Assembly: GCA_001513105.1 (NCBI GenBank)
Contig: LFSH01000059.1
Location: 11,375 to 75,374 of the forward strand
Origin: Clostridiales bacterium DTU070
GTDB lineage: Bacteria; Bacillota; Clostridia; DSM-8532
Length of the DNA stretch: 64,000 bases
Direction of reading: 5' to 3'
In this document: one piece after another, positions 1 to 4,626 of the stretch
How the letters are laid out: the number at the start of each line of letters is the position of its first letter
Numbering within the stretch: the first letter of the stretch is position 1
Notes under the pieces: generated by a model
Told to the model about the DNA's origin: nothing
The model's input: only the letters and a program-made list of their open reading frames with translations
Databases searched by the model: none
Made by a program: the position numbers and the translations under genes

Positions 1-1
1 T

Positions 2-355
2 CCTGTCTACCTGGGAAATGCTTATGACCGGGACATGAGTGCATCAGTGGTGTGTCCTGCAAATATAGGTGCCTGTGTAACAAACGCATGCGGAGGCAAT
101 ATAGGGGCATGTGCCCTGAATGCATGCGGAGCCAATGCCGGGGCATGTGGTGTTAACGGCTGCGGAGTTAAAGGCGGTGCGTGCGGCGTTGACGGTTGTC
201 CCGCAAATGGAGGTGCATGCGGAAGCAAGGCATGCGGAGGAAATGTCGGAGCATGCGGAACAGAAGCATGCGGAGGAAACGCCGGGGCATGCGGTGCAAA
301 AGCATGCGGCGGCAACACCGGTTCCTGCGGTGCCAAGGCATGCGGCAAAAATTAA
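2..355 (+). CDS. Cys-rich repeat RiPP precursor 1 (5'-partial; true start lies upstream of the window)
   Basis: Frame is open from nt 2: PVYLGNAYDRD precedes the ORF-track Met at 35 and aligns with IEYIGNAYSRE of the next gene. Core has 17 Cys with alternating spacing 7/5. Stop TAA at 353-355. Confidence 0.85.
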   Translation, partial: PVYLGNAYDRDMSASVVCPANIGACVTNACGGNIGACALNACGANAGACGVNGCGVKGGACGVDGCPANGGACGSKACGGNVGACGTEACGGNAGACGAKACGGNTGSCGAKACGKN

Positions 356-373
356 TAATAAGGAGGTTACAGT

Positions 374-742
374 ATGAGCAATAGAATTGAATACATAGGA
401 AATGCTTATAGCCGTGAAATAACAACGACCGTTGCATGCCCTGCCAATATCGGTGCATGTATTCCGAATGCATGCGGTGCAAATGCCGGAGCCTGCGGGT
501 TGAACGCCTGCGGCGCAAATGGCAGTGTTTGCGGGGTAAACACCTGCGGAGTCAAGGGAGGCATGTGCGGAGCAGATGCATGTGCTACCAATGCAAGTGC
601 CTGCGCAGCCAAAGCCTGTGGCGGCAATGGCGGTATGTGCGGCGCAGAAGCATGCGGTGCTAACGGTGGTATGTGTGGTGCCCATGCATGCGGTGCAAAC
701 GGCGGTTCGTGCGGAACAAAGGCATGCGGCAAAAACGGTTGA
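374..742 (+). CDS. Cys-rich repeat RiPP precursor 2 (122 aa)
   Basis: AGGAGG RBS just upstream; 21-aa leader, then 17 Cys at positions 22,29,34,41...113,118 (C-x6-C-x4 eight times); paralog of precursor 1; directly upstream of a radical SAM gene. Confidence 0.9.
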   Translation: MSNRIEYIGNAYSREITTTVACPANIGACIPNACGANAGACGLNACGANGSVCGVNTCGVKGGMCGADACATNASACAAKACGGNGGMCGAEACGANGGMCGAHACGANGGSCGTKACGKNG

Positions 743-776
743 TGCAGTGATCAGGATTATTTAGGTATCAGTAAAT

Positions 777-814
777 GGTTTGCTTACAAATCCATGGGAT
801 TTTGTAAACAAACC
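777..814 (+). other. Intercistronic stem-loop between precursor genes and maturase
   Basis: ggtttgcttacaaatcc / ggattttgtaaacaaacc imperfect inverted repeat; no U-tract follows. Confidence 0.55.
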
Positions 815-863
815 TGACCCGGTGAACATTTCATTAATATCTGTCATGCAAGGAGAATGAATT

Positions 864-2207
864 ATGAAGTTTTCCAGGTACAATCTTATTATCCCGGATG
901 AATCCCTGCCGGAGGATATGTTTCTTTTATGCAATACATTTTCGGGTGCAACATTCTTAATAGACTCCAGCCTTAAGGAACATATTGAAAAAAGGAATTT
1001 ATCAGCGCTTGAAAAAAATACAATTGAACAGTTTATTTCTGCAAACATCCTTATTGAAAATGATGATATTGATGAAGCAAGAATACATAGTTACTTTTGC
1101 AACAAGGAGAAGTTTGATAATTCGGTGCTGTCGTTAACCATCCTGTTAACCATGGGCTGTAACCTTAGATGCATTTACTGCTATGAGGGTGCCGGAGAGG
1201 TTTCAAACGAATCTCTTAATGACGAGACTCGCAGCAATATTTTTGATTTTATCAGGACACAGGCCGAATACCGCCGTTCACGAATTGTATCCATCTGGCT
1301 TTTTGGCGGTGAACCTTTACTGGACTTCAAATCCAATATACCTTTTTTAGAAAAGGTGCAAAATTTTTGCAGGGAAACCGACAGGGAATTCTTTACACAT
1401 ATCGTTACAAATGGTATATTATGTAACAGGGAGAATTTAAAAATACTTGAGAAGCTTAACTGCCAGACAATTCAGATTACCCTGGACGGTGTAAAGGAAG
1501 TACACGATAAAAGGAGGATATATAAAAACGGTAAAGGTTCATTTGACGAAGTACTGGCAGGAATTAAAAATGTAAAAAAGCACTATCCTTTATGCGACCC
1601 TATTATACGCATAAACATCGACAAAACCAATGTAGACCGGACCCGGGAGCTGCTGCAGTTTTTGCATGACGAGGGGCTTAATTCCTGTTCCTTGGATTTT
1701 GGCATTGTCAAAGGAACCACCGCTGCGTGTGCTTCATATAAAGGTAACTGTTTTTGCGAACATGAACTGGGAGACATCCTGTATAAGCTGTGGGGAATGG
1801 CCAAACAGCTGGGGTTCCCGATATATACCAATCCAACCAGGAGAAATATGTACTGCGGCTTATACTCGGACTCATCCTTTACGATCATGCCGAACGGTGA
1901 TTTATACAAATGCTGGGATTTTGTCAACGAGGAAAAGCACAGGGTTGCCAGGATTGGCGAAGGCGGCCAGGTAACGGACACAACCTATGCCTACTTTGAC
2001 TGGATGACACGCAACCCGTACGAAATAGCAGAATGCCGGGAATGTGCATACCTTCCTGCATGCGGGGGCGGATGCGTGGGTGTGAGCTTTATGGAAAAGC
2101 AGCAATACCATGCATCGGGCTGTTATAAAATGAAGGGTGTGCTTGAGAAGCAAATAATTGAACGTTTTAAAGGTGAACTTGATGCGAAAATTTCCAGGAG
2201 TTATTAG
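864..2207 (+). CDS. Radical SAM/SPASM peptide maturase with probable N-terminal RRE (PqqD-like) domain
   Basis: CNLRCIYC (CxxxCxxC), FGGEP, ITLDG; SPASM motif MYC...GDLYKC...CRECAYLPACGGGC...C; about 80-aa N-terminal extension typical of RiPP maturases; AGGAG RBS. Confidence 0.92.
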   Translation: MKFSRYNLIIPDESLPEDMFLLCNTFSGATFLIDSSLKEHIEKRNLSALEKNTIEQFISANILIENDDIDEARIHSYFCNKEKFDNSVLSLTILLTMGCNLRCIYCYEGAGEVSNESLNDETRSNIFDFIRTQAEYRRSRIVSIWLFGGEPLLDFKSNIPFLEKVQNFCRETDREFFTHIVTNGILCNRENLKILEKLNCQTIQITLDGVKEVHDKRRIYKNGKGSFDEVLAGIKNVKKHYPLCDPIIRINIDKTNVDRTRELLQFLHDEGLNSCSLDFGIVKGTTAACASYKGNCFCEHELGDILYKLWGMAKQLGFPIYTNPTRRNMYCGLYSDSSFTIMPNGDLYKCWDFVNEEKHRVARIGEGGQVTDTTYAYFDWMTRNPYEIAECRECAYLPACGGGCVGVSFMEKQQYHASGCYKMKGVLEKQIIERFKGELDAKISRSY

Positions 2208-3990
2208 GCGGAATTTCAAACTGTTAGGAAAAGGAATAAAGCTCGGCTATGGTTTCTTTTTTGTTCAGCTTGCCTGGGTTTTGTTCGGGAGCTTTATTAC
2301 CGTTCTTAACGTCGTCATTCCGAAATTTCTTATCGAGGCAATACAGAATCAGTCAATAACACAGGCTTTTCAGATTCTGCTCCTGACTCTTGGCATCAAT
2401 CTTTCGGCGAGCGTTGCAGAGATATATTATACGCCGTTTATAGCTCTGGCCAGGGAAAAGATAAACGTAAAAATCATAGACGAATTCCTGAAAAAAAGTT
2501 TTTCGCTGGAGCTTAAATATTTTGATAATCCCGGCTTTTACGATAAATATTCCATCGTTTTTGACAACTGCTGTGACCTGGTACATTCAGCCATAAATAC
2601 ATATTTAAGCCTGATAGCATCGGTGACGCAGATTGCCCTGGTATTTTCAATCCTGCTGTGGATGAATAAAGGGATTTTGCTGGTGATGCTGTCGGTTATA
2701 TTTATTCAGCTGATGATAGACAAAAAGCGGAAAAAGATACAGTATGACTACCAGAAAAGCATTACAAAGCAGAACAGGCAGTTGAACTATTTATACCGCT
2801 TGTTTTATGTCCCTCAGTTCATGAGGGATATACGGGTTAACTCGCTTAAGTCTTTTATTTTTAACAAGAAGAATGAAGCAACTAAGGATTTGCTGAACAA
2901 TGTAAAAACAACCCATAAGAAACTCAGCATTGTAAACTTTTTTGTTTCTGTTTTTTCTCACATGGAAACCTTCTTTATTTCCCTGTACTTTGTATTCCAG
3001 GCGTACAGGGGACGCATTCTTATCGGGGATTTTTTTGTTTCGCTTAACTCATACAACACATTGAAATCCTCAATTTCCAGCCTGTTTGCAACGTATAACG
3101 CCTTTTACTCAAATGACCTGTATATAAACGAATACCTTTCATTTATGGACACGGACAGCTCATCGGCATATAAAGGCAAAAAGAAGATCAGTGCCGGGGA
3201 AATTAAGCTGATTGAGTTCATCAATGTCAGTTTTACCTACCCGAATTCTCATTCGAAGGCCCTGGACGGTATCTCGTTTTCGATTAGGAAGGGAGAAAAA
3301 ATTGCAATCGTGGGCAATAACGGCGCGGGTAAAACAACGGTAATAAAACTCCTCCTGCGGTTATATGATCCTCAGGAGGGAATAATAAGGATAAATGGAA
3401 CAGATATCAGGGAATATGATCTTGTTGAGCTCAGAAATTCAATCTCGGTACTGTTCCAGGATTTCACGATATACCCGTTTACAATCAGGGAAAATATTAC
3501 CCTGGGGAAAAACATAAGCAATGAGGTGGTGGAAGATGCCCTTGACAGGGTGGGATTGCTGAACAAAGTTAAAAGCATGCCTCTTGGTTTGGATACACCT
3601 ATTACAAGCCAAATGCTGGAAGACGGCATTGAGTTGTCGGGCGGGGAAAGCCAAAGGCTGGCAATTGCCCGCATATATGCCGGCAACAAGGGGTTTATTG
3701 TACTGGATGAGCCTACAAGCAACCTGGATCCGTACATTGAACAGGAACTTTACGAAGCCATACTCAGCAATCTTGAGGAAAGTACGGTCATAATAATTTC
3801 CCACCGGCTCACATTTACATACAGAATGAATAAGATAATATGTATTGTTGACGGAAAAATAGCTGAGGAAGGTACGCACAGGGAATTGCTCAGGAACAGG
3901 AACGGGTACTACAGCGGAATGTTTGACCTGAGTGTGGATAAATATTTTGAAAAGGAACAGTCAAAAATTCTGAAGAGTTCAAATTTTTGA
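2182..3990 (+). CDS. ABC exporter, fused permease/ATPase (no C39 peptidase domain)
   Basis: N-terminal TM helices; Walker A GNNGAGKTT, signature LSGGESQR, Walker B IVLDE; ATG 2182 with AAGGTG overlaps the end of the rSAM gene (ORF track start 2158). Confidence 0.9.
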   Translation: MRKFPGVIRRNFKLLGKGIKLGYGFFFVQLAWVLFGSFITVLNVVIPKFLIEAIQNQSITQAFQILLLTLGINLSASVAEIYYTPFIALAREKINVKIIDEFLKKSFSLELKYFDNPGFYDKYSIVFDNCCDLVHSAINTYLSLIASVTQIALVFSILLWMNKGILLVMLSVIFIQLMIDKKRKKIQYDYQKSITKQNRQLNYLYRLFYVPQFMRDIRVNSLKSFIFNKKNEATKDLLNNVKTTHKKLSIVNFFVSVFSHMETFFISLYFVFQAYRGRILIGDFFVSLNSYNTLKSSISSLFATYNAFYSNDLYINEYLSFMDTDSSSAYKGKKKISAGEIKLIEFINVSFTYPNSHSKALDGISFSIRKGEKIAIVGNNGAGKTTVIKLLLRLYDPQEGIIRINGTDIREYDLVELRNSISVLFQDFTIYPFTIRENITLGKNISNEVVEDALDRVGLLNKVKSMPLGLDTPITSQMLEDGIELSGGESQRLAIARIYAGNKGFIVLDEPTSNLDPYIEQELYEAILSNLEESTVIIISHRLTFTYRMNKIICIVDGKIAEEGTHRELLRNRNGYYSGMFDLSVDKYFEKEQSKILKSSNF

Positions 3991-4003
3991 AAAGGAGGTA
4001 GAT

Positions 4004-4375
4004 GTGTGCGTGTCAATTGCTAACTACTTTATTATTCCTGAAGCCATTATAACCGTTGGCATTGTCCTTGTAGCCATACTGTCGATGCAGAAACAGAAAA
4101 TAGCAGATTCAAAAGGCGATATTTCAATTGGTTCTCTTAACAAGGCCGAAATACTTAAGCTGTCGCAGGAGGAAATTAAAAAACTCAGGAAAGTTGTCGC
4201 TACTGCAGCAGGCTGTCTGTTTCTTATAACTTTGCTGATTGCTTTTGGTGCGATATTCCTTTGTGAGTTATCCCTGGTCAGCATTGTTACCTGCCTGGTT
4301 TTGCAGGTTCTTTTAACAGTCATTTGCGGAATACCGTTTATGAAGAGAATCAAGGCATTCAGGCATGTTTCATGA
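4004..4375 (+). CDS. Small multi-pass membrane protein, possible immunity/accessory protein
   Basis: AAGGAGG RBS before GTG; three hydrophobic segments; immediately follows the exporter stop. Confidence 0.75.
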   Translation: MCVSIANYFIIPEAIITVGIVLVAILSMQKQKIADSKGDISIGSLNKAEILKLSQEEIKKLRKVVATAAGCLFLITLLIAFGAIFLCELSLVSIVTCLVLQVLLTVICGIPFMKRIKAFRHVS

Positions 4376-4626
4376 AATTGCATGCCGGTTGGAATTCCAT
4401 ACGCTCATCCGTGCAATACCGGTGAGCGTTGATTTATAATGTTCAGAACCTGCGGTTAACAGTACTTTGGTTAAGGAACCGGGCAAACAGCCCATAAAAC
4501 TGGATGCAGGCCGGGAAGAAGTTAACCGGCCATATTGGTTTGGATTTTCTTCGGAGGAAATTGAAATTTAATGTCCTACTTTTATTAAGCTGTAATATGG
4601 CACAGTGACAGGAGAATAATACCAAA

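Follow-up and report, generated by a model that had tools for sequence, protein, structure and literature searches.

A predicted CefA/CefB-superfamily RiPP operon whose precursors alternate 7- and 5-residue cysteine spacings

Gene content of the locus

We analyzed a 64,000-nucleotide (nt) stretch of DNA from Clostridiales bacterium DTU070 (contig LFSH01000059.1 of GenBank assembly GCA_001513105.1; hereafter the window, corresponding to C30:11375-75374). Positions 1-4400 of the window contain five intact, co-oriented open reading frames (ORFs), preceded by ribosome-binding sites and arranged in the operon order precursor A1, precursor A2, maturase, ABC exporter, and small membrane gene (Table 1). 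As judged from sequence, these genes constitute an operon of the CefA/CefB superfamily of RiPPs (peptides that are made on ribosomes and modified after translation) and, in particular, belong to a distinct subclade in which the distance between successive Cys residues of the precursor alternates between 7 and 5. An earlier note on this DNA had described tandem 17-Cys precursors, a radical S-adenosylmethionine (SAM)/SPASM maturase, an exporter overlapping it, and a membrane gene, all in one orientation, and that description holds for all five ORFs. The same note had read the system as one without a matching family; here our analysis differs. The CefA/CefB family is already known as a database-named family, and what appears to be new is a longer 7/5 variant that forms a divergent subclade.

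Table 1. Genes of the cluster, with positions in the window (aa, amino acids; RRE, RiPP recognition element)
Feature	Position	Strand	Description
Precursor A1	2..355	+	121 aa in full; 17 Cys in 7/5 alternation
Precursor A2	374..742	+	122 aa; A1 paralogue; 17 Cys in 7/5 alternation
CefB-like RRE–radical SAM–SPASM maturase	864..2207	+	447 aa
ABC exporter	2182..3990	+	~602 aa; fused permease + ATPase; no C39 peptidase domain
Small membrane protein	4004..4375	+	123 aa; ~3 hydrophobic segments (hydropathy)

Precursor peptides

Precursor A1 starts 11 nt 5′ of the window edge, reading MQKNPVYLGNAY… (MQKNPVYLGNAYDR… on contig C30), and carries the leader MQKNPVYLGNAYDRDMSASVV, with the motif YLGNAY. 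Precursor A2 follows after a gap of 18 nt, with the ribosome-binding site AAGGAGG ahead of it, and carries the leader MSNRIEYIGNAYSREITTTVA, with the motif YIGNAY. In both precursors, the first Cys is residue 22 and the spacings 7,5 are then repeated eight times. The two cores are 72% identical, with 17/17 Cys aligned, and the precursor DNA shows a 36-nt tandem periodicity. We count 15 alternating Cys neighbours, as compared with at most 5 in 200,000 composition-preserving shuffles. The fixed 12-residue period reported in the earlier note is real and unusual.

An AlphaFold2 (AF2) model of A2 computed from a 14-sequence alignment has a pLDDT score (from the predicted local distance difference test) of 36.6 and no stable fold; an autonomous solenoid fold of the unmodified precursor is unsupported by this model. 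A Pfam scan of the precursors and the membrane protein gave no significant matches, and a search for further precursors elsewhere in the genome found none. The exact A2 sequence is missing from a 15-billion-protein collection, and a profile of 7/5 precursors (E<=1e-3) matches 46 of 1.84 billion representative proteins, many of them fragments; 7/5 precursors are largely missed by gene callers.

Within window positions 301-338, metatranscriptome contigs of two studies (X28, X30) omit 36 nt in frame, which equals precisely a single 12-residue (5+7) unit of A1. The omission is not seen in four DNA metagenomes; it may be a variant at strain level, or reverse transcriptase may have jumped between repeats that share 9 nt of microhomology.

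Maturase and family placement

The maturase contains a radical SAM motif, CxxxCxxC (C99/C103/C106), seven SPASM Cys (C331, C350, C391, C394, C400, C404, and C420), and further Cys at C289/C296/C298. An AF2 model built on a family alignment (pLDDT 90.6) has an N-terminal domain of three strands and three helices (β3α3), the topology of an RRE. The earlier note's proposal of a RiPP cluster built around a radical SAM/SPASM enzyme whose N-terminal domain is of RRE type is supported, and CteB (5WGG/5WHY) is the best match in the PDB both by sequence profile (5.5e-40) and by fold (template modelling score 0.70-0.76, ~450 aligned columns).

Among curated NCBIfam models, the maturase comes closest to CefB (NF038107), which it matches with 574 bits (E 1.9e-172) over model positions 1-440 of 444, just under the cut-off of 600. 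The second-best family is TIGR04463 (235.2 bits; cut-off 525), followed by Clo7bot (TIGR04334; 223.1 bits; cut-off 600), the geopeptide model (163 bits), PapB (NF047865; 143.6 bits; cut-off 340), and the SCIFF maturase (TIGR03974; 117.4 bits; cut-off 425); CXXX-repeat (TIGR04115; 67.6 bits; cut-off 350) and the sactipeptide-related RumMC model (61 bits; cut-off 720) score lower. In a maximum-likelihood tree, the maturase lies inside the CefB clade together with the named CefB proteins of L003, L004, and L005 (support 99/98), and proteins named CefB by NCBI are 41-51% identical to it. Its neighbourhood is that of a CefB, with two precursors bearing the CefA leader immediately upstream. The precursors themselves match CefA (NF038108; cut-off 30) weakly: A2 scores 25.3 bits, and A1, read from an internal ATG at window position 35 (106 aa), scores 15.9 bits. 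Both A1 and A2 have the short Y-[LIV]-G-N-x-Y leader by which CefA is defined, comparable with YLGNGY, YLGNPY, and YVGRGY at canonical loci, and both depart from its other defining feature, a Cys at every fifth residue. The earlier note had been prepared to give way to a known family of the same periodicity; CefA is not such a family, because its period is 5, not 7/5.

A PADLOC search returned only generic ABC ATPase and viperin-like radical SAM similarity, and a reading of the locus as a defence system was rejected on that ground.

Related loci and spacing classes

A contig search with the single maturase protein gave two loci, and an alignment-based metagenome scan was needed for the rest. 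The survey, of about 85 related loci in all, included 80 metagenome loci found with a 43-sequence maturase profile, together with two named loci from metagenome-assembled genomes (MAGs), and the Cys-rich ORFs adjoining each maturase were read for spacing. The survey reveals three precursor classes associated with CefB-like enzymes, all sharing a YxGNxY leader: an all-5, canonical class (many loci; maturases 41-51% identical to that of the window), an all-7 class (L036, L037, L038, L040, L042, L052, and L054; 36-43%), and an alternating 7/5 class (the window, L001, L002, L011, L012/L018, L014, L015/L016, L055, L062, and L069; 49-100%). At L057, 7-spaced ORFs are interrupted by a frameshift. The CefB clade takes in all three classes, and the 7/5 maturases form one clade within the tree (100/99), L013 included. 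The CefB model gives 677 bits for the canonical locus L003, 535-575 for the 7/5 clade, and 361-554 for all-7 enzymes; the curated cut-off of 600 separates the spacing classes.

In the 7/5 class, the order precursor-maturase-exporter recurs in at least nine distinct loci, 14 of 14 aligned precursors match CefA weakly, and precursor lengths differ by multiples of 12 residues, that is, by 12-residue indel steps. The largest number of Cys in the class is 19 (L001), and the window peptides are near the top of its size range. The unusually large core emphasized in the earlier note is nevertheless not unique in size: an all-5 relative, L033, has 18 Cys in 118 aa. Canonical loci of Thomasclavelia spiroformis, Paramaledivibacter caminithermalis, and Paenibacillus donghaensis encode precursors of 67-87 aa with Cys at every fifth residue.

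Several side observations emerged from the survey. 'Cys-every-seventh' precursors at L036:3124-3411, L038:2795-3040, L052:3185-3448, and L054:1684-1920 have a Y[IL]GNAY leader, 8-11 Cys all spaced by 7, and D, N, or Q at the third position after Cys (Cys+3), and adjoin the CefB-like maturases that score 361-554 bits against the cut-off of 600. Twelve-residue 5/7 Cys ladders also occur in larger proteins lacking the CefA leader (P0144, P0146, and P0168): P0144 (326 aa) contains CGPDNCGPNDGA about eight times, and P0146 (200 aa) contains SCGSGACATDTS seven times after a long, different N-terminal region. The 5/7 Cys register may thus be a wider design that extends beyond CefA-leader peptides. 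In P0122, the N-terminus of a 7/5 precursor is fused in frame to the C-terminal end of an ABC exporter, with the maturase deleted; at L013 (1-1070), the maturase, exporter, and membrane gene are kept and no precursor is present. Both are decayed relatives.

A polar residue at Cys+3

Analysis of 38 non-identical precursors reveals a rule that spans the three spacing classes. In the 7/5 class, the residue at Cys+3 is N, D, E, Q, or K in 91% of 5-units and 97% of 7-units; the corresponding values are 97% for all-7 units and 68% for all-5 units. At every other unit position, these residues account for 0-9% in every class. In the window precursors, every one of the 17 Cys follows the rule, 17 of the 18 polar residues in the core lie at +3, and the pattern is matched by 0 of 100,000 shuffles. 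Specifically, the string of Cys+3 residues is NNNNNNKDNKNENKNKN in A1 and NNNNNNKDNKNENHNKN in A2, differing at one position. The constant +3 offset, set against the varying distance to the next Cys, argues for a repeat built of a C-x-x-[polar] module and, after it, a spacer, the latter being A in 5-units and x-G/S-x in 7-units.

Exporter and small membrane gene

For the exporter, ATG 2182 is the most likely start (alternative, TTG 2158), favoured because it aligns the N-terminus with the homologues of L001 and L002; the overlap with the maturase stop is then 26 nt. Alignment to the NHLP exporter models sets in at about model position 160, so the C39 peptidase part is missing. Wherever a 7/5 locus extends far enough downstream, an exporter orthologue that is 50-58% identical lies 3′ of the maturase; identity to the exporters of all-5 loci is 23-30%.

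The membrane gene begins 13 nt after the exporter and has its own ribosome-binding site, and RNA contigs bridge the junction (3990/4004). A 31% homologue lies directly after the exporter at L013. The claim of the earlier note that this gene is part of the system stands as regards position and co-transcription and weakens as regards its relatives: homologues with 61-67% identity occur alone in four unrelated contexts, and L001, L002, L012, L015, and L018 are without the gene. We therefore do not treat it as a defining part and rate its membership at somewhat below even. Possible readings are an immunity-type gene with orphan occurrences elsewhere, an accessory gene, or a mere neighbour. In Thermoclostridium stercorarium, the 67% homologue (L097:7001-7363) immediately follows pyrB-pyrC-pyrF. 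The window genome has its pyr operon on a different contig (C7), and a search across that genome found no second copy of the membrane gene. The differing pyr contexts indicate that the membrane gene changed neighbourhood within the genus.

Transcription, distribution and mobility

In metatranscriptomes of at least three studies, contigs cover all five cluster genes at a depth similar to that of neighbouring genes. A hairpin at ~776-813, between A2 and the maturase, was considered as an intrinsic terminator or attenuator and ruled out: it lacks a T-run, and its stability is that of shuffled sequence (z = -0.2). No promoter or terminator enrichment was seen. The 801-1000 bin, just downstream of the hairpin, has no coverage in any of four metatranscriptome runs.

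The 4.5 kb recurs in contigs of digester, biogas, and manure DNA metagenomes (2016-2025) with only one nucleotide difference, A>G at window position 1017 in the maturase gene, present in 4 of 4 DNA metagenome contigs examined. In its housekeeping proteins, the window genome shares 75-85% identity with Thermoclostridium stercorarium, making the host a Thermoclostridium-like member of the Oscillospiraceae. The maturase is missing from 5 of 5 genomes of the same genus and from ~30 genomes of the same family, and the closest named maturases are in MAGs of the Lachnospiraceae, that is, of another family than the host. Gene order shared with the nearest relative ends precisely at the edge of the cluster. 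The earlier note had suspected lateral acquisition from low GC content in the exporter. That hint fades on measurement: the exporter has 40.2% GC as compared with 43.7% for the genome (8th-12th percentile of 2-kb windows) and normal GC at third codon positions, and we rejected a GC-based island call as weak. The observations that bear on lateral acquisition are instead the patchy distribution, the synteny break, the family of the nearest maturases, and a tRNA-Pro gene. This tRNA-Pro(CGG) gene (C30:10489-10564, minus strand) lies ~800 nt upstream of the window start, between an ORF at C30:9485-10330 and the cluster, and is a plausible integration site.

Neighbouring genes at other 7/5 loci encode an ABC-2 ATPase/permease pair (upstream), a GHKL kinase accompanied by a Spo0A_C-type regulator, or a regulator of the RNPP type, and those at the canonical locus L003 encode AgrB, a kinase, and a LytTR regulator. 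Given the immunity-type ABC-2 transporters or peptide quorum-sensing regulators at related loci, a peptide secreted for competition or signalling is the probable product; such neighbours are typical for peptides of this kind.

Proposed mechanism and alternatives

We consider it probable, with moderate confidence, that the cluster is a CefA/CefB-superfamily operon with leader-guided RRE binding, tandem Cys-to-(+3) thioether rings, and ABC export. In this model, the N-terminal RRE domain of the maturase would bind the short Y-[LI]-G-N-A-Y leader, and the radical SAM/SPASM core would then proceed along the ~100-residue core peptide, joining, in each C-x-x-[N/D/K/E] module, the Cys sulfur to a carbon of the +3 residue. 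Most likely, this link would be of the ranthionine type, a non-alpha thioether such as CrpC, PapB, and NxxcB form. The product, with up to 17 tandem four-residue rings separated by spacers of 1 residue (A) or 3 residues (x-G/S-x), would be exported by the ABC pump; no protease gene is encoded among the five cluster genes. To our knowledge, 17 rings would make this the most heavily cross-linked RiPP yet proposed.

We infer up to 17 Cys-to-(+3) thioethers because the chemistry of three characterized enzymes bears on the system. CrpC, described in 2026 and a member of TIGR04463, the characterized family nearest to the maturase by HMM score, forms ranthionine links in a repetitive C-x-x-Q/D region of CrpA (PMC13692751). 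These were localized to CAGM, CAVD, PCAGD, and CPLV(L), which places them inside Cys…+3/+4. PapB, tolerant of n = 0-6, forms Cys-Asp/Glu β-thioethers at six in-line C-x3-D/E motifs (PMC9413430), and in NxxcB, Asn is a β-thioether acceptor (PMC9389541). The CefB-like enzyme family as a whole accepts spacings of 5, 7, and 7/5. A bolder extension, which we hold only tentatively and regard as rather unlikely in its entirety, is that CefB-like enzymes are processive 'ring-stitchers' that install one Cys-to-(+3) thioether per module, yielding 17 consecutive rings on the ~100-residue 7/5 core, with the strict 12-residue super-period, kept intact through 12-residue indels, reflecting a regular rod- or solenoid-like architecture of the product and not a requirement of the enzyme.

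Several points weigh against the proposed thioether-ring model. The all-5 class has Ala or Val at Cys+3 in ~30% of units, so an α-carbon (sactionine) link fits as well as a side-chain link. We know of no case in which Lys is an established thioether acceptor. Backward pairing of a Cys with an acceptor at its own -2 or -4 position may occur instead. Both the maturase and the precursors are under their curated cut-offs, the bacteriocin-like role draws solely on neighbours in other loci, and a literature search on CefA/CefB, Cys-every-fifth, or NF038107/8 found no relevant or experimental paper. Finally, the six CteB 'catalytic proximity' positions, defined in PMC10288494 and mapped here by profile alignment with CteB, are Y107, F147, V181, T206, W351, and D352 in the maturase, as compared with F, F, T, S, H, and Q in CteB.

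Some of these points suit a different outcome from the same enzyme and substrates, namely sactionine links and/or another topology, such as pairing with the preceding unit's polar residue (-2/-4) or a nested long-range hairpin, with the polar residue serving solubility or recognition. We regard this outcome as appreciably less probable than the proposed rings, and as the leading alternative to them. In addition to the tolerance of Ala and Val in the all-5 class, sactisynthases and ranthisynthases intermix phylogenetically, and proximity positions 1 and 3 (Y and V) are closer to those of the sactisynthase StsB (Y113 and I174) than to those of CteB (PMC10288494). However, the characterized relatives closest to the maturase, CrpC, PapB, and CteB, all form non-alpha links; the forward offset of the polar residue is fixed at +3, whereas its backward offset varies with unit length. 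Hairpin sactipeptides have Cys donors and acceptors in separate halves and no uniform repeat, which counts against a hairpin here. It is improbable that the maturase performs a non-thioether reaction (anSME-like oxidation of Cys to formylglycine, epimerization, or C-C/C-O cross-linking) and that the Cys instead serve metal binding or disulfides in a solenoid with 12 residues per turn. Beetle antifreeze β-helices, with their 12-residue Cys repeats and intra-coil disulfides, count in favour of such a solenoid, and AlphaFold3 suggested a low-confidence β-helix for CrpA (PMC13692751); the AF2 model of the A2 precursor, by contrast, is unfolded. The structural neighbours anSME, TigE (cyclopropylglycine synthase), SuiB, and EpeE would allow for other chemistries, but score far below CteB, and the repeats are invariant only at Cys and the +3 residue, as donor-acceptor pairs predict.

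It is very improbable that the cluster is an inactive remnant, or that the Cys-rich ORFs are not substrates and are located beside the maturase by chance. Decay does occur among relatives, as in L013, without precursors, and P0122, with its precursor-exporter fusion, and the exact A2 sequence is absent from the protein collection searched. Against this reading, all window ORFs are intact with ribosome-binding sites, the cluster is transcribed and near-identical across the metagenomes of 2016-2025, and the order precursor-maturase-exporter recurs in the 7/5 loci.

Significance

By spanning three spacing classes, the Cys+3 rule turns CefA/CefB from an annotation label into a specific hypothesis that can be tested by mass spectrometry. 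The all-5, all-7, and 7/5 precursors, together with their matched enzyme clades, offer a natural substrate series for asking how such a radical SAM enzyme gauges register and proceeds along very long cores. Clusters of this kind are invisible in standard annotation, for two reasons: the curated cut-offs lie just above the scores of the precursors and of the 7/5 and all-7 maturases, and the precursors are mostly uncalled. If 17 rings do form, the system would be a useful scaffold for engineering poly-macrocyclic peptides, alongside PapB.

Comparison with known systems

The system most similar to the window cluster is CefA/CefB (NF038108/NF038107), which is computationally defined. The two share the Y-[LIV]-G-N-x-Y leader, a core that is rich in Gly and Ala and has its polar residue at Cys+3, a full-length homologous RRE–radical SAM–SPASM maturase of the same clade, and a downstream ABC exporter. 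In CefA/CefB, however, Cys spacing is uniformly 5, whereas the window precursors alternate 7/5 with a period of 12, and the three named CefA examples have 9-12 Cys in 67-87 aa, as compared with 17 Cys in ~120 aa. The window cluster differs further in having two tandem precursor paralogues, another exporter type, and scores under both cut-offs.

CrpA/CrpC of Methanococcus voltae (TIGR04463; PMC13692751) likewise combines an RRE–radical SAM–SPASM enzyme with a long, repetitive, Cys-rich substrate containing C-x-x-Q/D modules, akin to the window precursors. Unlike them, CrpA is archaeal and has a 47-residue N-terminal region and 17-residue repeats, and no exporter is reported for the three-gene Crp cluster, in contrast to the exporter in the window cluster (PMC13692751). 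CteA/CteB (SCIFF/thermocellin) matches the maturase over its whole length in sequence and fold, the RRE domain included, at 21-23% identity; SCIFF peptides, though, have six Cys and no periodic ladder, as compared with the 17-Cys ladder of the window. With PapA/PapB (freyrasin), the likeness would lie in the chemistry: one enzyme makes many small, in-line thioether rings in tandem C-x(n)-acidic motifs (PMC9413430), as we propose for the window, with six C-x3-D/E motifs in PapA and 17 C-x2-[N/K/D/E] modules in the window precursors.

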